From assembly GCA_030606635.1 (NCBI GenBank), contig JAUWGA010000001.1, forward strand, positions 1-35,237: a DNA stretch of 35,237 bases, given 5' to 3'. Below, in pieces: positions 2-30,673 of this stretch. Position numbers and translations under genes: made by a program. The notes under the pieces were generated by a model. The model did not search any database. It saw only the letters and a list, made by a program, of their open reading frames with translations, and was not told where the DNA came from. This DNA comes from Methanosarcinales archaeon. GTDB taxonomy: Archaea > Halobacteriota > Methanosarcinia > Methanosarcinales > Methanogasteraceae. Every line of letters starts with the position of its first letter. Position 1 is the first letter of the stretch.

Positions 2-721
2 GGAAGGGTTGGGGACGATGCCGATGGCGCATACCTGCGTTTTGAGATGGCAAAAGAAGGTGTAGACACGCAAGGGATCGAGGTCGCCCGGGGCAGAACC
101 GGCAGCGCGATCGTGCTTGTCGATCCAGGCGGCGAGCGCTCAATGTATGTGCATTCCGGTGTGAATGATGCGCTCTCAGTGACGCCAGAGAACCTATCCT
201 ACGTAAAAAGCGCGAGATACCTGCATCTGTCCTCCTTTGTCGACGAAACCGTAATCGATGTGCAGAGAGAGATTCTCGACCGGTCGAAAGCCGAGATATC
301 CTTTGCGCCCGGGATGCTCTATGTCAGGAGAGGGGTCGATACACTCAAGGAAATCATCTCAAAGACCCGTGTCATCTTCTTAAATCGCGATGAGATTGAG
401 ATCCTTACCAGGTCCGGCTACAGAAAGGGAGCGGGAGAGTTAAATGAGGTTGGAGCAGAGATTGTTGTGGTGACGCTCGGCGGAGACGGATGCTACATCC
501 GAACATCGGATGCAGAGGTTTCCATTCCTGGGCTTGCTGCGAGGGTCGTTGATACGACCGGTGCCGGGGATGCGTTCTGTGCCGGGTTTCTGTATGGGCT
601 GCTGATGGATGAGCCGCTTGGGGTGTGCGGGCGTCTCGGGAACTTTGTTGCCGCGAAGTGCATAGGCGCGGTTGGCGCGAGGGAAGGGCTGCCGAGAAAG
701 ATCGAGATTGCAGAGGGTTGA
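2..721 (+). CDS. PfkB-family carbohydrate/nucleoside kinase, N-terminus cut by the window edge
   Basis: The frame is open from nt 2 (GRVGDDADGAYLRFEMAKEGVDT...), so the listed Met at 47 is internal. The C-terminal PfkB/ribokinase signature DTTGAGDAFCAGFLYGL is present. Confidence 0.85.
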   Translation, partial: GRVGDDADGAYLRFEMAKEGVDTQGIEVARGRTGSAIVLVDPGGERSMYVHSGVNDALSVTPENLSYVKSARYLHLSSFVDETVIDVQREILDRSKAEISFAPGMLYVRRGVDTLKEIISKTRVIFLNRDEIEILTRSGYRKGAGELNEVGAEIVVVTLGGDGCYIRTSDAEVSIPGLAARVVDTTGAGDAFCAGFLYGLLMDEPLGVCGRLGNFVAAKCIGAVGAREGLPRKIEIAEG

Positions 722-3192: not shown

Positions 3193-3436
3193 GGTATCCT
3201 ACTCCTGTACGGTGTTATGCGGCAAGGTACTTATTAGTATTTTAAGATGTGATTCACGTTACGGCTATCGATTTGTCTGGTTCTATAACGACATGGCAGA
3301 TCGCAGGAGCGCAGTCGAATCACTAAATTCCAGAGCAAATAAATTCGTGCAAATATGGGGTATGCGCCAGCATTCGTGATTTTATACCTTTTGGTCATGA
3401 CATTACAGAAACTTTTCGGAAACACGTTATAAAGAG

Positions 3437-3563
3437 ATATGCGAGCGGGAGTGTGGGGTTTGGGGGGGTAGTGTGGGGAGGGGGTAGTGTGGTAAAAAAA
3501 GAGGTTTTTTCAAAAACCCGCTCGCATATATGCCATATTGTGGTGTGATACTATTTAAACCTT
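3437..3563. repeat. Copy 1 of a composite element: 13-bp terminal inverted repeat enclosing a G-tract/AGTGTGG-repeat core, followed by a TATA-like box
   Basis: ATATGCGAGCGGG (3437-3449) pairs with CCCGCTCGCATAT (3517-3529). The core contains runs of G4, G7, G4 and G4 and repeated (T)AGTGTGG units. TGATACTATTTAAACCTT lies at 3546-3563. Confidence 0.85.
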
Positions 3564-3694
3564 ATGGTTTCAACAGAATATTCGTCATAATCCTGACATA
3601 TTCACAGCCAACATTGCCATACGGACCTACCACCCATTAGACCGTAGTCGTAGTCAAAACTGAAGCAATCGAAAGTGAAGAACTTGGTAGGGGG

Positions 3695-3806
3695 ATATGC
3701 GAGCGGGAGTGTGGGAAGTGGGGAGTGGGGGTTAGTGTGGTTAAAAAGAGTTTTTAGAAACCCGCTCGCATGTTACACCACTACTACCTGATACTATATA
3801 AACCTT
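3695..3806. repeat. Copy 2 of the same composite element
   Basis: ATATGCGAGCGGG (3695-3707) pairs with CCCGCTCGCAT (3761-3771). The G-rich AGTGTGG/AGTGGGG core is present. TGATACTATATAAACCTT lies at 3789-3806. On the minus strand this box reads TTTATATA, about 25 nt upstream of the hairpin. Confidence 0.85.
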
Positions 3807-6068: not shown

Positions 6069-6827
6069 CTAATCTTTGACCTTTATATAAAAAACATCAG
6101 GGCCATTTTTCATCTTAATATTTTTTAATTCAAATAAATTTGGATGCGCCTTAACAAGTAGGGATAATTGTTTGTATCCATAAGACCTTGGATCAAAACT
6201 CGGATCTAACTGGAGTAAACAATTTCCCACCGCGCCCAAATGCGCCCAACCATCCTCCCCTAAAGCCATTTCAAAAGCTTCTTTGAGCAATGGAATCGGA
6301 TCCGATATTTTCGCTTCTTCACCGGTTGTTAATAAACTCTTTAATTCCGTTTCATTTCCCCGGATGGACTCTTTAGGTGTTAGATTTTCAGTATAAATGA
6401 ATATGTTGCATGCATTTACGAATGCCTTCGGTGTTATGCTTTTACCAACCCCCATCACAAAAACACCGCTTTCACGAATTCTAGTTGCAAGTCTTGTATA
6501 ATCACTGTCACTGGAAACGATACAGAAACCTTCTACTGAATCGTCATGAAGGATATCCATTGCATCAATAATCATCGCACTATCTGTGGAGTTCTTGCCA
6601 ACCGTATAACGGAACTGTTGGATTGGTTGAATTGCAAGATTATTTAAAGTCTCTTTCCATCCATTCATATTTGGTGTAGTCCAGTCGCCATAGATACGCC
6701 TTATCGTAATTGGTCCGTGTTTACCCGTTTCAGCTAAGATCTTTTCAATTAAAGTCGGTTGTGCATTATCACCATCTATAAGTAAAGCAATTTTTATCTT
6801 ATTTGTATCATTAAACTGGTTGATCAT
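6069..6827 (-). CDS. NYN-domain (LabA/DUF88-like) predicted RNase fused to a C-terminal OST-HTH/LOTUS domain
   Basis: 252 aa. The NYN hallmark pattern is IALLIDGDN...YGDW...NSTDSAMIIDAMD...FCIVSSDSDYTRLATRIRESGVFVMGVG. The C-terminal ~70 aa (LLKEAFE...GWAHLGAVGNCLLQLDPSFDPRSYGYKQLSLLVKAHPNLFEL) is LOTUS-like. The gene is much more AT-rich than its neighbours. Confidence 0.8.
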   Translation of the reverse strand: MINQFNDTNKIKIALLIDGDNAQPTLIEKILAETGKHGPITIRRIYGDWTTPNMNGWKETLNNLAIQPIQQFRYTVGKNSTDSAMIIDAMDILHDDSVEGFCIVSSDSDYTRLATRIRESGVFVMGVGKSITPKAFVNACNIFIYTENLTPKESIRGNETELKSLLTTGEEAKISDPIPLLKEAFEMALGEDGWAHLGAVGNCLLQLDPSFDPRSYGYKQLSLLVKAHPNLFELKNIKMKNGPDVFYIKVKD

Positions 6828-16088: not shown

Positions 16089-18083
16089 ATGTCAGCAATC
16101 AAGAATGCAAGTATAATCCTGGTACTCCTGATCATCGCATTCTCATCAGGCGGCGGATGCGTGCAGGCAGATGATGCGCGTGGCGGATACATATTCACAA
16201 TCGACTTCGATACCAGTTCATCCACCGATTACTGGTACGGATACTACGGCAGCGTCATACCCGCATCGGAAAATCCGCACCGTCTCGATACCGAAACCCG
16301 GATACAGGAGATCGACATAAACCGGACCGGCGGATGTCTGCTTATAACCGATTCACAGGATGTGCCAAACCCGGCATACCTGATCGCTGGCAACCCTGCC
16401 ACGATCGATACCATCACCGGTACTGGCTATGATTCCGGGAGCAGGACGTTTACAGAAACTGCCGACTACACAATCTATGATCGGATCCTGCCTGCGCCAA
16501 CTGCATACATATTTGGGAACTGTTCCGAGTCCACGTTTAAGGAGGGGTTCTTCACAGAACAGGGCAAGGACAATCTCGTATTCATAGCCCCGGTCGTCGA
16601 GAGCGGCACCTGCTACAACGCGATGTCCTGCAATTTCCAGTTCATACTTCCGAATAACCCGGTAAGCCCGATGACCTACTATATGTACTATATTCCGGCA
16701 ATACCGCCGACCGAGCCATCCGCGATCTCTCTGACCGCAGACCCGGGTATCATCGAAGCGGATGGGACAAACAACTCAACAATAACCGCTACCGTTACAG
16801 ATGAGTCTGGCAGAATGATAAATGAGACCGAGGTTACATTCTCCACAACACTTGGGGGCATAACTCCACTGACGGCAGTAACTGCAAATGGCACCACAAC
16901 TACCATCCTGACCTCTTCAACTTCTCCGGGAACCGCGGTTGTAGAAGGAACCGTCGCAAACAAGACATCCGTAACGCAAGCGTCGACGCCGGAGGCGTTA
17001 CGCGATACCGTCCATATCCCATTCATAAGAACTGCTGAAGCCGGATGTAACGGAACACTGGAAAATGTTACTGTAACGGTAATAGGAACCGGGGTCAGGG
17101 TGGATGCTACAACGGTAACGATCAAAGACGGTGCTGTAACTATCACTACAACCAAAGAGAATGCAACACTACTCGCGGGTACTGCAACCGTGGGTATGGT
17201 TATTTCCATACCCATAAAAGGCGGCACTCTTGAGACAACGCTTAAAGATGACGCAACCGCAGTTACCGACACTGTTATCGGAAACATAAGCAAGACAAAA
17301 CTGAACACGCCTCCGGAAGAATACATAACATCGATGACCGAGGTTGGAACCGCTTCCGTAGACCTTGATGTTGAATTTCAAGCGACATTTACACCCTACA
17401 GAGGACTCTCCTTTACGACAACGCTGGTAGAACGATACGGAGATCTTAAACATCTGAATGTTTCTGACACCTCCCGACTGAAGGAAATGCTTGCTGACTA
17501 TTTCGGCGTTGATGCTTCTACAATCGCCAACAATACCCCTATCTTGGTATATTCTAAGCTGTCTGCAACGGACCTCACCCGGTCAGAGGTCACAGGAGTG
17601 CCGATCAGTATAACCCTGAACAAAGATTGGTTCGATACCGTGGCAGGAGGTGACCCGGGTAATGTCGTGCTCTTCAAGATCAATGAGACGACCGGCGAGA
17701 TAGAAGGCGACATAACCATGATACCGGAGTCTATCACTATAACCGGTAACCGGGTTACATTCCGCGCGACATTCGACCATTTCTCTGTATTCGCAATCAT
17801 TGCCCGACCACCAGCAGCCACCCCTCACAAAGGGGGCGGTGGCGGAACATATCCACCAGTTTTGACTGTGACACCAACAATCACCCCCACGCCCACTCCC
17901 GTGGAGCCGACCGTGGTAGCCGTGGGGACGCTGACGCCAACGGTAGCAGCGGCTTGGGCGGAACCGGAGGAAACCCCTGGGCAAGAAGAATGGTCCTATC
18001 CCATAAGGATAATCCTGCTCGCCATTGCTGCTGGCATCTTCATAATCTTTATATTATGGAGATCACGAAATGATGGTGGATGA
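16089..18083 (+). CDS. Anchored surface protein: WYGYYG domain + Big (bacterial Ig-like) domain + Thr/Pro linker + C-terminal TM anchor
   Basis: 664 aa with a signal peptide. The N-terminal domain (aa ~28-203) is paralogous to the 241-aa protein. The invasin/Big_1-like segment is SLTADPGIIEADGTNNSTITATVTDESG...TFSTTLGG...GTAVVEGTV. The C-terminus has PTPTPVEP, then the hydrophobic IRIILLAIAAGIFIIFILW, then RSRNDGG. Confidence 0.85.
   Translation: MSAIKNASIILVLLIIAFSSGGGCVQADDARGGYIFTIDFDTSSSTDYWYGYYGSVIPASENPHRLDTETRIQEIDINRTGGCLLITDSQDVPNPAYLIAGNPATIDTITGTGYDSGSRTFTETADYTIYDRILPAPTAYIFGNCSESTFKEGFFTEQGKDNLVFIAPVVESGTCYNAMSCNFQFILPNNPVSPMTYYMYYIPAIPPTEPSAISLTADPGIIEADGTNNSTITATVTDESGRMINETEVTFSTTLGGITPLTAVTANGTTTTILTSSTSPGTAVVEGTVANKTSVTQASTPEALRDTVHIPFIRTAEAGCNGTLENVTVTVIGTGVRVDATTVTIKDGAVTITTTKENATLLAGTATVGMVISIPIKGGTLETTLKDDATAVTDTVIGNISKTKLNTPPEEYITSMTEVGTASVDLDVEFQATFTPYRGLSFTTTLVERYGDLKHLNVSDTSRLKEMLADYFGVDASTIANNTPILVYSKLSATDLTRSEVTGVPISITLNKDWFDTVAGGDPGNVVLFKINETTGEIEGDITMIPESITITGNRVTFRATFDHFSVFAIIARPPAATPHKGGGGGTYPPVLTVTPTITPTPTPVEPTVVAVGTLTPTVAAAWAEPEETPGQEEWSYPIRIILLAIAAGIFIIFILWRSRNDGG
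16971..17001 (+). repeat. Dispersed palindromic repeat, copy inside the 664-aa CDS
   Basis: GTAACGCAAGCGTCGACGCCGGAGGCGTTAC. The termini GTAACGC/GCGTTAC are inverted and the core GCGTCGACGC is self-complementary. It matches 20259-20287 at 27 of 29 positions. Here it is read as VTQASTPEALR. Confidence 0.8.
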
Positions 18084-18153
18084 TCGCACGATAATCTTTT
18101 TATAAAAGCGTATTAAAGAGTAATGCCACTAACATAAATAAGGAGGTTGTGGT

Positions 18154-19932
18154 ATGGGTCAACATCTGAAGCAACAACTGAAATATATATTAATTATAGT
18201 ATGTGTCATCGCGTCTGTGCCGGCTGCGTGTGCAGAGAGGGGCCAGGTAGTTATCAACTCTGGCGACTGGAGGGATGTGTACTCTTCCATAATGTATGCA
18301 AACTTGCGCGGGATGCCTGCTTCGTTCATCACCGACGCACCACACGCAACCGCTCTGCCGAACTATCTCGACAAGGATCCGGATATCCTGCTTGTCGAGT
18401 CCGAAACGTCACCGTTCTTTGCAAATTACGAAGGGACGCTGACCAATGAGGGGTTTGTGGTTTCAGGGACATACAAGTCTCCGGGTGGGGTAGAAGCAAA
18501 CCTACATTTCATAAGAGAACTCCCTGATATAACGAACTTTATCGTACTGGATGATTCTTATGGGTATAACGCGATCTCTGTTGCGCCTTATTCCGTCAAA
18601 AGCAGGTCATGGGTCTTGTTTGCCGATCATGATAACATCGATGAGCTATCCGGTTTTCTTGGTGGGCGCACCGTTAACAATCTATTGATCTACGGTCGTG
18701 TGGACCGGCAGGTAAATGATTCGTTGAGCATATACAATCCTGAGATCGTCGATTATGGTGACAGGTTCGATAACAACATCGCAATCGTTGAGAAATACCA
18801 GGATATATCGGAAGCCAGCCAGATCGTCTTTACGAATGGAGAGTTCATCGAGAACGAGATCATGTCAGGAAGAGAGCCGGTGCTCTTCATCGGCACAAAC
18901 GTCATTCCCGAGCAGACGGTCAACTATCTGAATGGGAGCGGGATCGAGACCGGTGTGGTCATAGGCAATGCCCTGACCGATGCCGCAAGCATGATAACAG
19001 CACGCACCGATATGCATGTCTTCATCAAGTTCGGGCAGGGAAGAGCCGGAGGTGGCGGTGGCGGCTTCAGTCTTGTTGAGGCGCTCGATGAATTCCCGCT
19101 GCCGAAGTACGAGCTTATCATGTCTGTCGTCTCTGTGGACTACAATCAGGGCACCGGAGGACTGGAGGTCGTCTACCAAAACGATGCGAACATCGATATC
19201 TTCTCCAAATCCTCAGTAAGTGTATTCGTTGACGGTAACGCCTCCGGCGTCGACGCCCGGGACGGAGAAATTTTCACGGGCGTTACACAGGTCGCAACGG
19301 TCGGGGATGAAGAGGCGATCGTTATCACCGAAGGAACTACGTCCGGCGTTTCGTACGACTGCCCGGAACTGGCAGCGCAAGAATCGCTGGAGACCGCAAA
19401 CATCACGGCTGATGTGTATGCAGTCTTCGGGGAATCAGAAAGATCGCTTAATAGATTGTTGCAACAGACGCTTGGGGTTGGCGTAATCACCTTTGTGGAC
19501 CGATCGAGCATTGATGCAACAGAGGTACTCTACACCAAAAAGACAGAGCGTCTCTCGGTAACGGTCACCAATACAGGAGATGTGCCGTGCTATGTCTGTC
19601 CTGATGTTCTGTTGCGCATCGGTGGGCGAGAGCAATCGTATAGAGTGGTTGACGACCCCCTGTATCTGCCAGCTGTCGGGAGTGTGTCTCCATCTTGCAG
19701 GATCGATATGACCGATGCAGACATCGCAGACAACCCGATCGTCCCGGTACATATCTCTTACGGAGAGCGCGAGAAGATGCTTGGGAAGGGTCTGGACAAG
19801 GAGCTACCTCTGGAGATTGTTTCCACGTTTAACACAAAGCAACTCTTTGCCAACCCCGCGATCCTTGCAGGGCTTGCTATAGCCGTCATCATTTCGGCTG
19901 TGATCCTGCTGATGAGACGAAGAAAGAAGTAG
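18154..19932 (+). CDS. Anchored surface protein, hypothetical
   Basis: 592 aa. An AAGGAGG RBS lies 6 nt upstream. It has a signal peptide (LIIVCVIASVPAACA) and a C-terminal TM helix plus basic tail (ILAGLAIAVIISAVILLMRRRKK). Confidence 0.85.
   Translation: MGQHLKQQLKYILIIVCVIASVPAACAERGQVVINSGDWRDVYSSIMYANLRGMPASFITDAPHATALPNYLDKDPDILLVESETSPFFANYEGTLTNEGFVVSGTYKSPGGVEANLHFIRELPDITNFIVLDDSYGYNAISVAPYSVKSRSWVLFADHDNIDELSGFLGGRTVNNLLIYGRVDRQVNDSLSIYNPEIVDYGDRFDNNIAIVEKYQDISEASQIVFTNGEFIENEIMSGREPVLFIGTNVIPEQTVNYLNGSGIETGVVIGNALTDAASMITARTDMHVFIKFGQGRAGGGGGGFSLVEALDEFPLPKYELIMSVVSVDYNQGTGGLEVVYQNDANIDIFSKSSVSVFVDGNASGVDARDGEIFTGVTQVATVGDEEAIVITEGTTSGVSYDCPELAAQESLETANITADVYAVFGESERSLNRLLQQTLGVGVITFVDRSSIDATEVLYTKKTERLSVTVTNTGDVPCYVCPDVLLRIGGREQSYRVVDDPLYLPAVGSVSPSCRIDMTDADIADNPIVPVHISYGEREKMLGKGLDKELPLEIVSTFNTKQLFANPAILAGLAIAVIISAVILLMRRRKK
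19236..19267 (-). repeat. Dispersed palindromic repeat, inverted copy inside the 592-aa CDS
   Basis: TAACGCCTCCGGCGTCGACGCCCGGGACGGAG matches the reverse complement of 20203-20234 at 27 of 32 positions. It is read as NASGVDARDGE, the same peptide register as in fumA. Confidence 0.8.
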
Positions 19933-19984
19933 ATAGATAGTATAAGTCATAAACAGGAACGGAGGGCGGATGGATAAATTACCG

Positions 19985-20926
19985 TCATGCTCCATCCCCT
20001 CCCAGTTCCACGCTCGCTCTCCTGTTCGCCCAGCACTGGATGTTCACAGCAACAGGAAGCGATGCGGTGTGGCAGTGCGCATACTCGATATGCACGGCAA
20101 GCGCGGTGATATCTCCGCCAAGCCCCATCGTGCCGATGCCGAGTGAATTGATCGCATCGAGTATCTCCAGCTCGAAATCGTCCATAACGCAAGCGATCAA
20201 AACTCCGTCTCTTGCGTCGACGCCAAAGGCGTTAATGCAAGCATCGACGACAGAGCCGTTAACGCAAGCGTCGACGCCAGAGGTGTTATCGTAGATTTCA
20301 CGCAGTAGCGCCTTCTTTGCAAGGCGGGCTGCCTTGTCAAAGGATCCGCCGATCCCGACGCCAACAATAATCGGAGGACACGGCTTTCCTCCGGCATCTG
20401 CGACTGTCTCGAGGACGAACCGCTTGATATCCGCTACCTGCGAGGGGTTAAGCATCGCAAGCCGGCTCACATTCTCACTTCCAGCACCTTTCGGCAGCAC
20501 AGTAATCCTTATGCGGTCTCCCTCATTGATATCGAGAATAATGTCAGGAAGTCCGATTCCAACGTTTCCGGACGGCTCCCTCCTGGTCGGATGCACCGCG
20601 TTTGGTCTGAGCGGCACGATCTCGGTTGCTTTTTTAACACCGTCCCGTATCGCATCTTTGATGTCAAAATTAATCGCGCAGTCCCTGCCGATCTCGACAA
20701 AGAATATCAATATCCCGGTATCCTGACAGATCGGAACCTTCCGCATCGCTGCGAGTTCGATGTTCTCAAGAATCGCCTCGATCTGCGCTCTTGCGGTGGG
20801 ATCGGTCTCGCGCCCGTGTGCATCCTTTAGTGCTGCCGTCACGTCGTCAGGAAGCCGGGTCTCAGCCCTCAGGAGCAGGTCAACGACGCTCTGCGCCACG
20901 TCCTCGTACGTAATATCTCTGCCCAT
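19985..20926 (-). CDS. fumA: Class I (Fe-S) fumarate hydratase / tartrate dehydratase alpha subunit, with an internal repeat insertion
   Basis: It has the VPICQDTG motif and the ...LGIGTMGLGGDITALAVHIEYAHCHTASLPVAVNIQCW block. I start it at the internal Met (MGRDITYEDV), which matches family N-termini. The longest ORF runs to 21025 but overlaps the upstream gene by 146 nt. Confidence 0.85.
   Translation of the reverse strand: MGRDITYEDVAQSVVDLLLRAETRLPDDVTAALKDAHGRETDPTARAQIEAILENIELAAMRKVPICQDTGILIFFVEIGRDCAINFDIKDAIRDGVKKATEIVPLRPNAVHPTRREPSGNVGIGLPDIILDINEGDRIRITVLPKGAGSENVSRLAMLNPSQVADIKRFVLETVADAGGKPCPPIIVGVGIGGSFDKAARLAKKALLREIYDNTSGVDACVNGSVVDACINAFGVDARDGVLIACVMDDFELEILDAINSLGIGTMGLGGDITALAVHIEYAHCHTASLPVAVNIQCWANRRASVELGGDGA
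20177..20288 (-). repeat. Tandem 27-nt (9-codon) repeats of the palindromic element inside fumA
   Basis: The units 20258-20284, 20231-20257 and 20204-20230 encode TSGVDACVN, GSVVDACIN and AFGVDARDG. A fourth, degenerate unit at 20177-20203 encodes VLIACVMDD. Confidence 0.85.
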
Positions 20927-21950
20927 GCCCACGCCGCTCCCCCCTACTGCGTTTGTCTCTCCTGCTTCGCGGTCTTGCAAACTGCTTTCGTCCTCTATTT
21001 CTTCCGGATCTTGCATGTTTTTCATCCTTCGCTCTCTTTACACCTGATTTTGCTTCCGTTTCCGGCTTTCCCACCTCTTTTTGCTTTTCAACCGCTATCG
21101 GCTCTCTTGCTTCTTCCACCTCGCTTGCAGTCTCCTCGACCACGATGCCGCGGGGTGCGTCCATCGTGCCGTCCACTACCGCGCTGCGATGGATATTGAT
21201 AGCCCGTGCATGGAGATCGCCAAGTACGTGGTTGCCACTGCCGATGCTGATGTTGCCACTCGCATCGATATTTCCATGAACGGTACAATTTTCATGGATC
21301 GTGATGTCTTTAGCCCTGATGCTTCCGAATAAGGTTGTGTTGCTGCCCATAGATACCGATTCTGCACGGATGTTGCCTTGCAGCCGGCAGTCGTCTCCGA
21401 TATGTGCGGGCTTACCTGTTTCGATCGCGCTGAGCGTGATTCTGGATTTGGCAGGCAGTATCATCATTGGGGCATCGCCACTGTCCGAATCATCGGAAAA
21501 GAGATCATCCAATGCTTTTTCCACCTCTTCGTCCTTGCCGCTGCGTATCAGCTCACTCAGGTATAGATACAGGAAGATGATGAGCGGTATCGGGTTTCTG
21601 ATCGTGATCCAGCCCCTCGCCTCGAATCCGTCCTTGATCGATACATGATCTCCGATGTCAAGATTGCCTGCAACAGCGAGTTTGCCGTCGATCTTCGTAA
21701 ACTCTCCAAGATGGGCGTCGCCATTCGCACGCACTGTGCCTCCGATCTCAGACCTGCGGTCGATGTAAACATCCGAACGTGCAGAGACCTCACCATATAT
21801 CTTCACGTGCTCACCGATCGTGATCTCATCTGCGATGATGCCGTATTCGATGCTGGTGCCGCCACCGATGATCGCACCGCCGTCAACCACAATGGTACGC
21901 TCCTCCATCCTGGTGCCGTCAGGGACGACGAGTGTTTGTGGATCGAACAT
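20880..21950 (-). CDS. Bactofilin-like (polymer-forming, beta-helical repeat) protein with a central hydrophobic segment and an Arg-rich tail
   Basis: 356 aa. It has two blocks of degenerate I/V-x-G repeats (IGEHVKIYGEVSARSDVYI..., GDDCRLQGNIRAESVSMG...) typical of bactofilin/DUF583 proteins. The hydrophobic segment is PIPLIIFLYLYLSELI. The last ~45 aa are extremely basic. Confidence 0.65.
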   Translation of the reverse strand: MFDPQTLVVPDGTRMEERTIVVDGGAIIGGGTSIEYGIIADEITIGEHVKIYGEVSARSDVYIDRRSEIGGTVRANGDAHLGEFTKIDGKLAVAGNLDIGDHVSIKDGFEARGWITIRNPIPLIIFLYLYLSELIRSGKDEEVEKALDDLFSDDSDSGDAPMMILPAKSRITLSAIETGKPAHIGDDCRLQGNIRAESVSMGSNTTLFGSIRAKDITIHENCTVHGNIDASGNISIGSGNHVLGDLHARAINIHRSAVVDGTMDAPRGIVVEETASEVEEAREPIAVEKQKEVGKPETEAKSGVKRAKDEKHARSGRNRGRKQFARPRSRRDKRSRGERRGHGQRYYVRGRGAERR

Positions 21951-24889: not shown

Positions 24890-27800
24890 TTATTCCAAAG
24901 AACGTTCGATTTCAGAGTGACACCATCCGGGTCTGCGCAGTAGGTTGAAAGTATCTATGTAACGGACTGATGCGCCCCCGGCAGCTGCAACAGCTTCATC
25001 AAGAATTCCCTGCGGATTCTGTGTGTCCCATAATGGATGAACGATAATAACCTTCATGATTCTGGTTTCAAATCCTGGCAGAGTTCCCCATGTTCGGGAC
25101 TGGTGGTCATCAAACTGTGATGCAAAGTTATCGGACAGTTTGGTAGCAAAATCTATCCAGCCATCCAATTCGGGCGTCGTGAACTGACCATCGAGCCCGC
25201 ACAAATACCGCGAGTCCTTGAGTATATGTAGATAAGCCAATGCAAGACGCCAGTCCAGAAGACCGTGATAATTCATGTTCCGGTACCTCATGAGACAAGC
25301 ATAACATGCAGAGTCACAGGAGGAACGATGCGACTCAGAAACAATCTTTGTAGGGAAGGAACCCGGATCATTCGGCGATACGATTCCATGCAACACTGAG
25401 TCCCAGTTATCAGATATCCAGCGCACAAAACCTGCCCCGTTGGCAAGGAAGTCGCTCAACGTGATAGCGCCCACATACATGCCGTCAACCTCCAGACACT
25501 GAAAATTACAAATTTCAATTTCATCAGGGTCTATATCCAGCCTCTCGGAAGCTGCCGCTCTCAAAAGGAATGCAGCAGAATAAATGGCTGCTTTGACACC
25601 ACCGCTGGAAGTGACCGGGTCAAGGTTTAAACCCGGAGGTACTGATAACGGTCTGAACCTTAAAACATCGGTCGTCTTACCTGCAGCAATGGCAATCCGC
25701 TGGATTTCTTCTGGTCGATCTTTGCTGACATAAGCAATGTAATCTGATGAAATCCACTGATTACCAAGAACGGGTTTTTCTGTTAGTGGATCCTTCGTAT
25801 CATGTCGGTACCCTCTTGTTGTAACCAATCCCCCCTCAAAAAGTTTTCCAGCGTTGTCGTTGATACGCCATACACGACACTCAGAGGAAAAACTTGTCTC
25901 GCAGTTAGAGCTTACTTTCGTGGAAAATTTTGATTCAGCGCTCTCCGCGACAGAGGTTGGTATTCCGTAAAGAATGTCTCCTCCTTCCTTAGCATCCTTG
26001 CCTCGTGATAGGTCTGTTCTGAATGCAAGCGGTACCGCTGCCAAGTAGCTTTTGAAGTACGGTCCTTGTGGTGTTTTGCAGTATTTGCACTCAGTTTCAG
26101 AGTGTTGCAGGTCGCTTACTATTATATTACCACATCTCAGACAGCGCACCATCCAGCGCGTGGAAAACGGGTCAGCAGCGAGAGGCGCCCACTGCCCGCG
26201 ACGGTTCACAAGAGGTGCTGTAAATCCAATGGCGGTATGAATGGCTTTATCCTTGGTTTTCTGAGCTCCTGGCGCAAATTCAGTAACCGCCAGCTCCAGA
26301 TCTCGATCTACTGTCGATTCTTTTCCGCGCAGTTGATGATAGAGCAGCCGGCTGCGTGACGGCATCCCATACATTGGCAGGATGCCGCCTTCAGCCAGTC
26401 GTTCTGCCAATCCTATTCCAGCTCCCGCGAGTTCTGGGTTAGTAGATGCCTGATCGATCGATTCAGGCAGTTTGTTGCTGAGATAGTCCAACCATTCCTC
26501 GATCTTTCGCTGGTCCACATTTCCAACGAGTGCTCTGATAACGTCCTCTCTTGAATCGTCTGTCCGCAGCCAATCCAATACCTGTTGCTGAACTTCATGC
26601 CACTTCTCGACAAACCCGAACTCACCATGGCTGTCTGGGGGCTTCTCGGGGCAGTCCCACCACCGCACTCCAGCATCCCAAAACGCTCTGCGCAGACATT
26701 CCCTTGCCAGCAGCCGCTGAACAATTCGCTCCTGTTTCATGGTGAGAAATGGCACCGGTGGGGCGCCGCCTGTAATCTGTTCTGGATTAGCAAAATAAAA
26801 CTCGTCGTGGCTGCGGCCGCGGCAGAGTGTGAGAACTGTTGCAAACGCCTGACCGCGTCGCCCAGCTCTGCCGACTCGCTGTTGATAGTTAAAACGCATG
26901 GGGGGCATGTTTGCGAGCATCACTGCCTGCAAGTCTCCGATGTCCACTCCAACCTCCAAAGTAGTTGTAACGCTGAGAACATCGATCTTATCAACCTTTT
27001 CAATAAGAACCTCTTCCTGTCCTGCAAGATCAACGAAAATGTCGCGAAAATGCCTCTGCCGTTTAGCCTGATCATCGGTCTGGGCTGTCAACTCTTCGCA
27101 GTGAAGTCTAATTGGAACGCGCTTCGCTTCTGCTGCTGCATAAGCCAGATAGTTGTGTTGCCAGAGATCCTTGCAGGTGTGGTTGGGCTGTTCTGGAAGC
27201 TGTTTGTGGCAGTTTGTACAGATTCCAGCAGAGTAATGCAGGTGTGGTCGGCGGCAGGTGTGGCATATCCACACGGGATCGTCTGGAAGAGCTACTTTTA
27301 CATCGAGACTGCTTGTTTGGATCATCCCGTTCTTATGCCCGGCTGTACGAAGTGCAGAGAATATTGCCGGACCGACGTCTCGTTCATTCAGCCCCCATTT
27401 TTGGCAGACGGCGCATACAAAGTCTCTGAAGCTGACACGGGCATCGCTATAGTCGGGCCAACCGTATTGTTTAAACTCAGATCCATCGTGGCGGTAGAGG
27501 TCGCCTAATATCCGCAAAGCAGAGTCGCATGCCTGCCGGAAACACTCTAACTGCTCCTGCTGGTGTCCTGCTTCAGATGCGTGGGTTTCAAGTTTCTGGT
27601 CATCAAGCCCCAATTTGAGATAACCAAGCCCTGAAGATTCCATGCTAAAATATAGGCGGCTGAAGAACAGGTCGCACAACCCTTCTCTAACCTTCTTGCG
27701 GAGTGTATTTTTAGCACGGTCCGTATCGGGTGGAAGCCCGTCTTTCCATCTCTTTTCTGTAAAATCGAAAAGTTCAGTCCAGCTGTGCCAGTTCTCTTCC

Positions 27801-30673
27801 CATTTGAAACGCTGTGCATCGAGGTCATTTCCAGCAGGATTCACTCCTGTACCGAGAAGTCTGCTGAGAAGCCTCCCGCATTCAGCAGTATTTCCTTTAT
27901 GAGGGTAGATCAAGTCGCTTACATGAACAACCCGCGACTTCCCTCGCTGCCTGATGATGTTGAGCCTTTGTTCGGCGTCATCCAAAGCATGTTGCAGAAC
28001 TATGTTGGCATGTTCAGGAAGTTCGACAGGGATGCCACCTCTAACCAATTCAACATCTCCACGGATCGCAGTATCAGATCCTGGGGTTTCTTCAACATAT
28101 TCTGCTGCAAGAGAACCGTATGTGGTACGGTTCTGTTCAATATCATCGAGCAATTGAGGTTCGCCCAGTGTTGCCATGAGCAGTTCGTGTATCACCGACT
28201 CACGGAGCAAATCCGAATAGTGGTTGCGCTCTACACCGTTGGAGATCTGTGCTGCATCTTCGCGGCTGTCAGAAAACGAAACAAGTTTGCGCCCTTCATC
28301 AGGTAACTGGTAGAACAGTTCTTTTGTGAGTATCTGGCTGACCTTGGAAAAACCAGTCCTGAAACCGCGTACAGGCGATCTCCGTGAGAGTTTTTTGGCG
28401 TAGTCTTTTGCGCAGCACGCACAGACCGAAGGAAGTGCGGTAAAGGACTCCCTCGCCTCATCACCTTCAGCATCTAATAGGGATCCGAATTTCTTTCCTT
28501 TTTTTGTGCCAATTTGAAAGAGATAGCCTTTCACCCAGTTATCCGGATCTTCTGAATATTTCTCATGCGACAGATCTACCCTCCCTGAACGTGTATCAAG
28601 ACTGGCAGGAGTCCACTGACCTTTTTTTACCGCCACCCCAATCCGGTTAGGTTGGCTCCAGATAGACGCGTCTTCATGAAGCTGTAAATTTCCAACAGGC
28701 CAGAACACAGCAAACTCCTTGTAAGTGCGGCGTTCGATAAAACGTGCTGCCTGTCGGTCAGGAATCCCCTCGATATCCGGATCTGATGGCAGCATTTCAA
28801 TGACACCCTCCCCGAGATCCAATCTGTTTCCACCAAAGTAAACAGCGCCGCAATGCTCGCAGAGGAGTAATTCTAGGACTCGACGTCCCTTTTTAGTAAT
28901 GATTCTCGGAGAAGAATATAATGTTCCGACTGGTCTTCCGTCTTCTGCGTATGCAGGCGGTTTGGTAGATGCCCACAACCCTTCAGTGCTGCGGAAAAAC
29001 CAGTGAAGGCGGAATGATGGTAGCGATGATTGTTCTCCTTCATCATCGCAAATACTACGAGCTGCAAGAAGTCCGCGGACAGCTTCCCGTCTATTTTCCC
29101 CTGATACTGCTGTTCCAAAGAGCTTCTCTGCAAAGTCATCGAGCGAAACAGCACGCGTTTCCCCCTCACACTCACATGCCTTCTGCGTTCTGGTGGCAAT
29201 GCGCATACCATCTGATTCCATCTGTTCTTTTAGAGCCAACTTTCCAGATGGTGCGTCTCCTCGGTACCCAAGAGAAACTGCTGCTTTCTGACAGGCATCA
29301 TCAGAAAAATCAGGCGCATCCTGACTGAGAGTAACGAACGGTTCGGATGGCAAAAAATCAGATCCGGCAATCTCTGGAATTTGATTTTGACGCCCCCGGA
29401 TTATCTCAAAGCTGTCTGCTTGAGCACCGAAGAAATCATGGAGAAATTCACGGCTTTTGGGATTGTCAGGGTCCAGCGAGGCGCTGGAGCTTAAGATGCG
29501 CAACTTAAGATGGTCTGGTGTAAGTCCCAGACGCAGGAGCAACAACCTCAAAAGATATGCCACCTCAGCGCCAGCCGTCCCCCTGTAGAGGTGCAGCTCG
29601 TCAATGATCAAATGAAACACTCTATCGTCCCCACCCGCCAACCACCGCCGCGTCTTCTCAAAGATGGGATCATCTATCTCGCGCATGAGCATGATGCTCA
29701 ACATCGAAAAGTTGGTTATCAGAATATCTGGCGGCGAGTCCTGCATGTCCCAGCGTGAACGCATCTCAGCACCATCAAGTTTGGGGAAATAGGACGTGAC
29801 ATCTGGCTTGTTGTTATCTTTGGCGTATCGCTCAGCAGCATCTGCGTCACGGTCCATGTCCATCAACACGCGAGTAAGTCTATCTATTCTCTTCCGGTCG
29901 GGGTTTCTGTTGCCATTGGCATTCGGCTCCTTAAATTCATGTCCCGGGATGGGTGTGCTGCCGTTGTAACGTCCAAAGTAGATTTTGTTCCCCTCTCGGT
30001 TATGCTGAAACCACTCCCTCGCGTCATCCGAGTCAAGAGCTTTGCGGAGGCGAGTAAGCTGGTCTTCAACCAGCGCATTCATTGGATAAATGATCAATGC
30101 ACGAACAGCAGCATCCCTCTGCTCGTGACCCCGCTGAGAAACTCTGTAAGAACGCTGTATCCGGTTGTGTTCGTTACAGCAGGAATCCTGCCACTGGCTA
30201 TCATTCCACCAGTTGTTAACGTGGGGGTCTGGCGTATCCGGGGCTACCCAGCCAGAAGACTCTCGTGCAAGGTAAGCGAATAGCGGAAGAAGGAATGCTT
30301 CAGTCTTGCCTGAACCGGTGCCGGCAGTAACCACACAGTTTGTACCTTCTAACACTCTTTTAAGCATTTCCGTCTGGTGGTCATACAGTTCGTAGTCTCC
30401 GAACAGACCACATGCAACCAACGACTTAAAATCGGATATTTCCTGATTGCTGAGTCCATGGAGGTCTTCTTCTTTTAAATCCTGAATAGTCTTCCCAGAT
30501 TTCTGGTATATTGGCAGCGGTTCAATCCAAGGTTCCTGACACAGGACCCCGAGCTCTCGCAGCAGTTCTTCCCTTTCAGCCTCTATGGATGGAAAACGGG
30601 TGCCGAATACAGTCTGTATGTACCGGATAAAGTTATCCCGGATAGTATCAAATGCGCCAACCGGGTCTTTCAT
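24890..30673 (-). CDS. Giant DEAH-box superfamily-2 helicase with internal Zn-ribbons and a C-terminal DUF1998/MrfA-type Zn-binding domain (DruE-like)
   Basis: 1,927 aa. Checked on the DNA: Q/Ia region LYDHQ, Walker A AGTGSGKT (30302-30325) and motif II DELH (29591-29602). Motif VI is QQRVGRAGRRGQ. The Cys pairs are CEHCG, CACC, CHTC...CTNC and CLRC...CKYC. The DUF1998-like signature is CDSACYACLMRYRNMNYHGLLDW (its first Cys codon at 25316-25318). Its ATG overlaps the upstream stop (ATGA). Confidence 0.9.
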   Translation of the reverse strand: MKDPVGAFDTIRDNFIRYIQTVFGTRFPSIEAEREELLRELGVLCQEPWIEPLPIYQKSGKTIQDLKEEDLHGLSNQEISDFKSLVACGLFGDYELYDHQTEMLKRVLEGTNCVVTAGTGSGKTEAFLLPLFAYLARESSGWVAPDTPDPHVNNWWNDSQWQDSCCNEHNRIQRSYRVSQRGHEQRDAAVRALIIYPMNALVEDQLTRLRKALDSDDAREWFQHNREGNKIYFGRYNGSTPIPGHEFKEPNANGNRNPDRKRIDRLTRVLMDMDRDADAAERYAKDNNKPDVTSYFPKLDGAEMRSRWDMQDSPPDILITNFSMLSIMLMREIDDPIFEKTRRWLAGGDDRVFHLIIDELHLYRGTAGAEVAYLLRLLLLRLGLTPDHLKLRILSSSASLDPDNPKSREFLHDFFGAQADSFEIIRGRQNQIPEIAGSDFLPSEPFVTLSQDAPDFSDDACQKAAVSLGYRGDAPSGKLALKEQMESDGMRIATRTQKACECEGETRAVSLDDFAEKLFGTAVSGENRREAVRGLLAARSICDDEGEQSSLPSFRLHWFFRSTEGLWASTKPPAYAEDGRPVGTLYSSPRIITKKGRRVLELLLCEHCGAVYFGGNRLDLGEGVIEMLPSDPDIEGIPDRQAARFIERRTYKEFAVFWPVGNLQLHEDASIWSQPNRIGVAVKKGQWTPASLDTRSGRVDLSHEKYSEDPDNWVKGYLFQIGTKKGKKFGSLLDAEGDEARESFTALPSVCACCAKDYAKKLSRRSPVRGFRTGFSKVSQILTKELFYQLPDEGRKLVSFSDSREDAAQISNGVERNHYSDLLRESVIHELLMATLGEPQLLDDIEQNRTTYGSLAAEYVEETPGSDTAIRGDVELVRGGIPVELPEHANIVLQHALDDAEQRLNIIRQRGKSRVVHVSDLIYPHKGNTAECGRLLSRLLGTGVNPAGNDLDAQRFKWEENWHSWTELFDFTEKRWKDGLPPDTDRAKNTLRKKVREGLCDLFFSRLYFSMESSGLGYLKLGLDDQKLETHASEAGHQQEQLECFRQACDSALRILGDLYRHDGSEFKQYGWPDYSDARVSFRDFVCAVCQKWGLNERDVGPAIFSALRTAGHKNGMIQTSSLDVKVALPDDPVWICHTCRRPHLHYSAGICTNCHKQLPEQPNHTCKDLWQHNYLAYAAAEAKRVPIRLHCEELTAQTDDQAKRQRHFRDIFVDLAGQEEVLIEKVDKIDVLSVTTTLEVGVDIGDLQAVMLANMPPMRFNYQQRVGRAGRRGQAFATVLTLCRGRSHDEFYFANPEQITGGAPPVPFLTMKQERIVQRLLARECLRRAFWDAGVRWWDCPEKPPDSHGEFGFVEKWHEVQQQVLDWLRTDDSREDVIRALVGNVDQRKIEEWLDYLSNKLPESIDQASTNPELAGAGIGLAERLAEGGILPMYGMPSRSRLLYHQLRGKESTVDRDLELAVTEFAPGAQKTKDKAIHTAIGFTAPLVNRRGQWAPLAADPFSTRWMVRCLRCGNIIVSDLQHSETECKYCKTPQGPYFKSYLAAVPLAFRTDLSRGKDAKEGGDILYGIPTSVAESAESKFSTKVSSNCETSFSSECRVWRINDNAGKLFEGGLVTTRGYRHDTKDPLTEKPVLGNQWISSDYIAYVSKDRPEEIQRIAIAAGKTTDVLRFRPLSVPPGLNLDPVTSSGGVKAAIYSAAFLLRAAASERLDIDPDEIEICNFQCLEVDGMYVGAITLSDFLANGAGFVRWISDNWDSVLHGIVSPNDPGSFPTKIVSESHRSSCDSACYACLMRYRNMNYHGLLDWRLALAYLHILKDSRYLCGLDGQFTTPELDGWIDFATKLSDNFASQFDDHQSRTWGTLPGFETRIMKVIIVHPLWDTQNPQGILDEAVAAAGGASVRYIDTFNLLRRPGWCHSEIERSLE

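Follow-up and report, generated by a model that had tools for sequence, protein, structure and literature searches.

The 35,237-nucleotide (nt) stretch of Methanosarcinales DNA analysed here (contig JAUWGA010000001.1, positions 1 to 35,237; hereafter the window) carries a short palindromic repeat within three neighbouring genes. Judged from sequence comparison, the repeat very probably belongs to a family of mobile DNA elements, tiny and non-autonomous, that is specific to ANME-2c (anaerobic methanotrophic) archaea. The original prediction, made from the window, described a tiny mobile palindrome, akin to repetitive extragenic palindromes (REPs) or miniature transposable elements with inverted repeats (MITEs), that the host protein tolerates as an inserted peptide. 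The feature exists, and its reading as a mobile palindrome is right. The comparison by which the prediction proposed to be judged came out in favour of mobility: many further copies were found at unrelated loci in genomes and metagenomes, and all three window genes also exist without the segment, with exact, TA-bounded junctions. The comparisons show that the element lands at a TA within a palindromic CGR-TA-YCG target and afterwards has TA on both sides. In the scenario that we propose, it would be moved in trans by an enzyme encoded elsewhere. Because the lengths are multiples of three and the frames are open, intragenic insertions would survive as extra loops of 9 to 34 residues, or as N-terminal extensions, that the host protein tolerates. 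The host genes and the units that they contain are as follows.

16089-18083, plus strand: gene for a secreted or membrane protein of 664 amino acids (aa), with a Big_1/Invasin_D3 domain at residues 210-297.
18154-19932, plus strand: gene for a 592-aa protein that has a signal-like segment at its N-terminus and a membrane segment at its C-terminus.
19985-21025, minus strand: fumA, class I fumarate hydratase alpha subunit (PF05681; PDB 7xky).
16972-17000, plus strand: S unit in the 664-aa gene, 29 nt including both TAs, net gain 27 nt, TAACGCAAGCGTCGACGCCGGAGGCGTTA, exactly the family consensus.
19236-19285, consensus on the minus strand: L unit in the 592-aa gene, 50 nt, net gain 48 nt, two mismatches to the L consensus.
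20185-20234, plus strand: L2-subfamily unit, 50 nt, first in the fumA array, TAACGCAAGCGATCAAAACTCCGTCTCTTGCGTCGACGCCAAAGGCGTTA.
20233-20261, plus strand: S'-type unit, degenerate, 29 nt, second of three in the fumA array.
20260-20288, plus strand: S unit, 29 nt, two mismatches, last in the fumA array.

The boundaries were set by a fuzzy scan and a repeat finder. The core GCGTCGACGCC is found exactly at four sites of the window; with one mismatch allowed, 0.7 matches are expected, and the observed count was reached in none of 100 shuffles. Likewise, the 29-nt consensus with up to three mismatches yields two matches in the window against zero expected. The repeat is thus present at the three places originally named, far beyond chance, and it is correct that every copy in the window is in frame with its host open reading frame (ORF). 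The boundaries needed revision to different degrees. In the 664-aa gene, 16971-17001 was merely trimmed by one base at each end. The inverted copy of the 592-aa gene exists, but what had been given as 19236-19267 is really the 50-nt form. The tandem array of fumA does comprise multiple units, yet it spans 20185-20288 instead of 20177-20288 and consists of three units of two sizes, in which adjoining units have one TA in common; the net insert amounts to 102 nt, or 34 aa. The reported identity of 27/29 between the 664-aa gene copy and the last fumA unit holds, whereas the value of 27/32 for the inverted copy is better expressed as a perfect 22-nt inverted match plus a 50-nt match of 74% to the fumA array. 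All three host sites fall inside 3.3 kb, with the S copy of the 664-aa gene and the L copy of the 592-aa gene lying 1-3 kb from the fumA array.

Comparison with orthologous loci revealed pairs of empty and filled sites with exact TA junctions at five places, namely fumA, the 592-aa gene, the 664-aa gene, glmS and a larger MITE:

fumA, filled, in every case between D and M of REI(Y/C)D-MDDFE: one S, two S, L only, S+L or S+S+L; gaTAACGCC...GCGTTAtgg.
fumA, empty: all Methanosarcinaceae, and relatives with identities of 84%, 78% and 70-75%; gaTAtgg or gaCAtgg.
592-aa gene, filled with L: window, MAG_107 and two metagenome contigs; ggTAACGCC...GGCGTTAcac.
592-aa gene, empty: seven other species; ggTAcac, ggTGcac or ggCAcac.
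664-aa gene, filled with S: window lineage only.
664-aa gene, empty: four species; gTAcac or aTAcac/aTAtat.
glmS, filled: one or two units, nine residues past the catalytic Cys; ggTAAC...GTTAcat.
glmS, empty: no unit; ggCAcat.
Larger MITE: filled, attcTAAC...GTTAccg; empty, attcTAccg.

Filled sites are longer than empty ones by exactly 27 or 48 nt, or by a sum of such lengths, and have TA on both sides where the empty site has a single TA (or CA/TG). At these five sites, a true duplication of TA and the landing of a TA-ending element beside a TA are indistinguishable by sequence. Over 24 independent sites, the target is the palindromic CGR-TA-YCG, with a purine at position -1 in 22, a pyrimidine at +1 in 19 and a C at +2 in 16 of them. 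The S copy of the 664-aa gene and the L copy of the 592-aa gene appear to be recent, lineage-specific insertions, and the fumA array appears to be older. The window is near-identical to a contig of the ANME-2 metagenome-assembled genome (MAG) MAG_107, and the fumA S unit of that genome has the very sequence of the S copy in the 664-aa gene. Together with the position of both lineage-specific copies near the fumA array, this might, as a speculation, hint at local hopping.

To survey the distribution, one genome per prokaryotic species was scanned with a 21-mer core. This core is present at 46 genome loci, 43 of which are in assemblies of ANME-2, Methanosarcinales or Candidatus Methanogaster (placed in Methanogasteraceae, ANME-2 cluster), and it matched 53 metagenome contigs. 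The core of the S' form (ACGGC..GCCGT) added 64 genome loci, about 52 of them from ANME-2c, including genomes that lack the first core. When grouped by their flanks, the copies represent more than 30 independent sites at unrelated loci, nearly all in ANME-2c (Methanogasteraceae) assemblies, within which the spread is patchy. Searches of viral contigs with both cores and of plasmids gave no match, and thus no vector is indicated. No Rfam match was obtained for the region, and no mention of the element sequence, of the encoded peptides or of MITEs in ANME was found in the library of papers searched. The matches outside ANME (Mycobacterium, Fibrobacter, Methylocystis, Streptomyces and a termite-gut gene) lie inside unrelated conserved genes and were dismissed as chance. 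Among them, the S' 21-mer in a conserved gene of seven Methylocystis genomes (loci L115, L118, L120, L124, L126, L133 and L147) has identical flanks and no element architecture, and looks like a chance match. A contig labelled 'Candidatus Fermentibacteria' (QNDS01000321.1; locus L031, the same as L070), counted among the 43 loci, has a context identical to an ANME-2c carB locus with the element and is probably misbinned.

Alignment of all copies revealed a common plan, TA-[ACGNC..loop..GN'CGT]-CG-[ACGNC-3 nt-GN'CGT]-TA, in which both stems are ACGNC/GN'CGT and the stem junction creates the central palindrome GCGTCGACGC. The size classes have net lengths of 27 nt (S), 30 nt (D, a 32-nt form) and 48 nt (L, L2 and V), i.e. 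multiples of three throughout, and the variation sits in the first stem-loop. The L consensus is TAACGCCCGTGAAAAAATCTCCGTCCCGGGCGTCGACGCCGGAGGCGTTA. The V form is located at the N-terminus of a SecF-like gene. L2, the first fumA unit, recurs as a subfamily at an unrelated locus (L066/L105), and its stem 1 differs from that of L by two compensatory pairs. S corresponds to L2 minus 21 nt, the deletion lying between GCG microhomologies, and the middle unit of the fumA array has in relatives the S' form, ACGGC AGA GCCGT. As single-stranded DNA, L is predicted to fold into two adjacent hairpins of -12.6 and -14.5 kcal/mol (z of -2 to -3); the folding of S is weak. The stems comprise 5 and 7 bp, the loops 3 and 17 nt, and the tail is TA. 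Units with a single hairpin (15 nt) were absent from 1.04 Mb of related DNA.

The pairing within the hairpins is maintained. For hairpin 2, 96% of cells are paired across 28 distinct S-type units; at pair 18-24, 15 units have CG, 9 have GC, 1 has AU and 1 has GU, a covariation that none of 500 shuffles reached. Three pairs of stem 1 covary among 24 L-type units, in which pairing amounts to 97-100% for both stems. The end-to-end pairing of the termini, on the other hand, is not kept (pair 6-24 is broken in 13 of 28 S-type units), and only TAACG/CGTTA is invariant there. Two further arguments were set aside. A higher conservation of the element than of its flanks was dropped as a sign of function, since the loci had been picked by an exact 21-mer and the half of L outside this ascertained core diverges about as fast as the flanks. 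The lack of inverted adjacent units was not accepted as evidence for strand-specific insertion either, as long perfect palindromes would be unstable anyway.

Some small features of the units deserve mention. GTCGAC forms the centre of each well-preserved unit throughout the family (in the window at 16983-16988, 19250-19255, 20217-20222 and 20271-20276) and is degraded to ATCGAC in the middle fumA unit, while the head-to-tail junctions between units all read GTTAAC. Both hexamers fit GTYRAC (a HincII-type site), and each is CGT-NN-ACG, so that the internal CG junction mimics the inter-unit TA junction. Some ANME-2c genomes contain an additional S-type unit about 280 nt from the fumA insert (L015:6140-6168, L025:4199-4227, L063 and L065). 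It has an A-T stem pair (ACGAC AGA GTCGT) and is not present in the window.

The number of units per site ranges from 0 to 3 in fumA, 1 to 3 in carB (one or three), 0 to 2 in glmS and 1 to 6 in a gene for a MinD/Fer4 protein; one gene holds six identical L units. At one orthologous site, S is found in some species and S' in others, and another site harbours S'+L, L' alone or four L' units. These comparisons show that units pile up head to tail and recombine on site, with copy number and subfamily varying between species. Older units drift mainly through amino-acid-changing substitutions. Furthermore, about half of the S' copies ride at a fixed TA in a family of MITEs of about 150 nt, which implies that the mini-element also spreads as a passenger. 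This separate, larger MITE has the ends GGGCACTGTC...GACAGTGTC and an 8-bp duplication, ATGCCCAC; its site is filled in locus L027 (about 560-720, minus strand) and empty in L043, and further copies occur in L038, L078, L116, L121, L122, L137, L151, L153, L163 and others. Most copies of it and of related MITEs contain the S' mini-element at the one fixed internal TA.

About three quarters of the sites are inside ORFs. About a quarter lie between genes; examples are a copy upstream of nadA, another 8 nt upstream of pyrD and one within a MITE. Hosts identified by Pfam comprise PolD DP2, CarB, GlmS, Nop5, SecF, a THUMP methyltransferase and the MinD/Fer4 protein; the 592-aa protein of the window has no Pfam match. 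Four of the six reading frames of the element are free of stops, and the hosts use all four. One frame, TQASTPEAL or TPVKNSPSRASTPEAL, is used in the 664-aa protein, PolD DP2, the THUMP methyltransferase, Nop5, SecF and an FAD oxidoreductase; another, NASGVDACV or NASGVDARDGDFFTGV, in FumA, the 592-aa protein, GlmS and the MinD/Fer4 protein; the frame TPPASTPGTEIFSRAL in CarB and a 1056-aa protein; and the fourth open frame reads NASVDAGGV. The two frames that start with TAA were never found inside an intact gene among the intragenic copies examined. The peptides predicted from the inserts thus include ...REIYDNTSGVDACV... and ...VTQASTPEAL...; in the window, the S unit at 16972-17000 would read (V)TQASTPEAL, and the L unit at 19236-19285 NASGVDARDGEIFTGV. 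In its commonest frame, which is also that of 20185-20288, the family encodes N-x-S/T sequons (NAS, NGS, NTS) and one cysteine per S unit. Going by sequence, these could bear on secreted hosts through N-glycosylation, or on the Fe-S enzyme FumA.

The Big_1/Invasin_D3 domain of the 664-aa protein stops where the insert starts. The true start of fumA is likely the ATG at 20926, and the insert separates the D from the M in REIYD-MDDFE. In a model of FumA it forms a low-confidence coil between two helices (predicted local distance difference test score, pLDDT, 25-33), and relative to the solved Methanocaldococcus jannaschii enzyme 7xky it is an unaligned gap. Another host is the gene for the PolD large subunit, DP2 (L011:1127-6085, minus strand), which has an L unit in its central domain. 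The same gene also holds a LAGLIDADG intein (Pfam Intein_splicing, LAGLIDADG_3), i.e. two kinds of selfish insert in one essential gene.

Could the similarity instead reflect a protein module such as NASGVDA..., inherited from an ancient ancestor or selected? Its commonest reading, NASGVDAC/RDG.., does recur in fumA, the 592-aa protein, GlmS and the MinD/Fer4 protein. However, the hosts read one and the same DNA in either orientation and in four different frames (TQASTPEAL, NASVDAGGV, TPPASTLAL, NASGVDA..), and the use of four frames by different hosts indicates a DNA element and not a peptide motif. Moreover, the segment is absent from close orthologues, some copies are intergenic, and older units change mostly at the amino-acid level, which leaves next to no probability for an ancient motif. 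A gene-conversion or recombination tract among the three neighbouring genes, which the original prediction had offered as its second option, is exceedingly improbable as well. The three sites do lie within 3.3 kb, and the alternation of S and S' at one orthologous site suggests some conversion among existing copies. Yet the hosts lack common flanking homology, the boundaries are invariably TA...TA, and more than 30 sites are dispersed over different contigs; conversion also needs a homologous acceptor beforehand, and the empty sites have none.

An insert that is never translated would be cut from the mRNA by archaeal bulge-helix-bulge splicing, or bypassed by the ribosome as in the byp elements of yeast mitochondria. 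The hairpins form and their stems are maintained, as such a process would have it. The sizes, however, are all multiples of three (27, 30, 48), and intragenic copies occur only in the four stop-free frames. Removal or bypass would impose neither, and with no Rfam match at hand we regard this explanation as very unlikely. We also see little likelihood in a domesticated module, whose hairpins would benefit the host, for instance by offering a site for protein binding or by acting on mRNA stability or on pausing. Such roles are known for bacterial REP-type repeats (PMC3733652), and the stem covariation would fit. Against this stand the free variation in presence, number and subfamily of the units between close species at one site, the unrelated hosts and positions, the decay of old units and the patchy spread within ANME-2c.

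A small mobile element accounts best for these data. As to the enzyme that moves it, our leaning, which falls just short of even confidence, is towards one that would act in trans and recognise the hairpins, probably in single strands of DNA, in the manner of the tyrosine (HUH) transposases linked to REPs and to IS200/IS605. We lean this way because of the stem covariation, without strong grounds; the very small size of the element, its invariant ends, TAACG, which span just 5 nt, and the covariation within hairpins instead of between ends point in the same direction. There is a sizeable chance that the element is moved by a TA-duplicating DDE transposase of the IS630/Tc1-mariner type, and some other enzyme is an unlikely but conceivable mover.

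Several observations weigh against a mobile element as portrayed here. All sequences stem from MAGs, and we infer both the mobility, from comparative data on such assemblies, and the translation of the insert. The copy number per genome is modest, and many S' copies are MITE passengers. The covariation rests on perhaps four or five independent events and could in part stem from templated correction within quasi-palindromes or from recombination between units. The TA on each side and the symmetric target suit a DDE enzyme better than the favoured HUH type. In addition, a Pfam scan of the large ORFs in the window identified no parent insertion sequence (IS) or transposase; and in about 1 Mb of ANME-2c DNA fetched around the loci, neither the pairs of TAACGC...GCGTTA up to 3 kb apart, all of which were scanned, nor lone hairpins away from the known units disclosed a transposase or a longer parent with matching ends. 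The fetched loci likewise showed no Y1 (HUH) transposase gene with the repeats at its flanks. The missing parent IS is weak evidence, since MAGs are often devoid of IS copies.

The nearest described counterparts are the CGTC-tagged REPs of bacteria. These are mostly head-to-head dimers in housekeeping genes, include the Rickettsia conorii palindromic elements RPE-4 and RPE-6, and have no dedicated transposase (Di Nocera et al. 2013, PMC3733652). Their hairpins have a stem of 8-9 bp, a loop of 4-5 nt, a 3-nt tail, CCA, and an unpaired CGTC tag (Table 1 in PMC3733652); an overview of RPEs is available (PMC10969869). The ANME element resembles them in its short stem-loops beside CGTC, the head-to-head pairing and the lack of an adjacent transposase, and, as in the CGTC-tagged REPs and RPEs, it makes in-frame inserts of about 20-30 aa in housekeeping genes that are unrelated to one another, those for replication among them. 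Each unit consists of two hairpins that face a central CGTCGACG, with CGTC located 5' of a hairpin on each strand: it lies one base 5' of hairpin 2 (of hairpin 1 on the other strand), and its CGT belongs to the neighbouring stem. In this overlap of the tag with the stem of the other hairpin, the element differs from the CGTC-tagged REPs, as it does in its stems of 5-7 instead of 8-9 bp, its loops of 3 or 17 instead of 4-5 nt and its tail TA instead of CCA. Furthermore, the sequences are unrelated, the host is an archaeon whereas the published families are bacterial, and the ANME element has documented, exact TA-bounded empty and filled sites and a palindromic target.

Similarities to MITEs of the IS630/Tc1-mariner (Stowaway-like) type are also apparent. 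The element is non-coding, multicopy and dispersed, with presence/absence polymorphism, and like TA-duplicating MITEs it is flanked by TA at either end, with one TA when the site is empty. Its termini recall the short inverted repeats of such MITEs, but their complementarity is kept only in TAACG...CGTTA. In contrast to these, its core measures 25-46 nt, is GC-rich and resides mainly in genes, the covariation is found per hairpin and not end to end, and no parent IS was found. Of the features that define MITEs (PMC10969869), the element exhibits most, namely small size (29-50 nt), absence of own coding capacity, dispersed multicopy occurrence, polymorphism and an apparent target-site duplication. 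It is neither AT-rich nor mainly intergenic, and a related autonomous IS with matching ends is missing. A census of 183,232 genomes put the lower limit of MITE size at 41 bp for archaea and 49 bp for bacteria, the median being 104 (PMC11602168); the ANME element is smaller than the MITEs recorded there.

Selfish palindromic DNA that sits in frame in many unrelated genes and is tolerated as peptide is likewise represented by the RPE-1 type of Rickettsia and the QMITEs of Coxiella. Relative to the RPE-1 type (about 100-150 bp), the ANME element is three to five times smaller, with a different sequence and architecture, and its hosts are free-living (syntrophic) archaea instead of obligate intracellular bacteria. 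Small mobile pairs of GC-rich hairpins that can sit in coding regions are also known from fungal mitochondria (double-hairpin elements, GC clusters, byp elements). The byp elements are skipped during translation, and the mitochondrial double-hairpin sequences are organellar and unrelated to the ANME element. We rate the ANME element as a variant, new and archaeal and very small in size, of the palindromic selfish DNA that lives in genes.

In-gene palindromic selfish DNA, known from Rickettsia and a few other bacteria, is thereby extended to archaea, by an element far below the size range that standard MITE finders consider and whose clean before/after sites define the target (TA within CGR-TA-YCG). 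It is a lineage-specific source of insertions in core enzymes of ANME-2c (PolD, CarB, GlmS and FumA), organisms that are important for the methane cycle and not yet culturable. The inserts account for odd length differences and low-confidence loops in ANME-2c proteins. They may be used as strain or lineage markers and can flag misbinned contigs, such as the 'Fermentibacteria' contig with the ANME-2c carB locus. With a 25-nt core plus TA, the element might even be the smallest mobile DNA so far documented for which empty and filled sites are known exactly, two minimal hairpins being recognised by an archaeal enzyme and sizes and frames being selected for life within genes in a genome short of non-coding space. 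We consider this rather doubtful; if true, essential enzymes of these uncultured methane-oxidising archaea would keep gaining loop insertions from it.

Elsewhere in the window, the GC content falls to 0.38 in the segment 6001-7000, around a 252-aa ORF (6069-6827). An intergenic gap contains a 47-nt direct repeat (77%) and a GGGAGTG tandem (3419-3465, 3677-3723 and 3705-3730), and a 1927-aa ORF occupies 24890-30673 on the minus strand.

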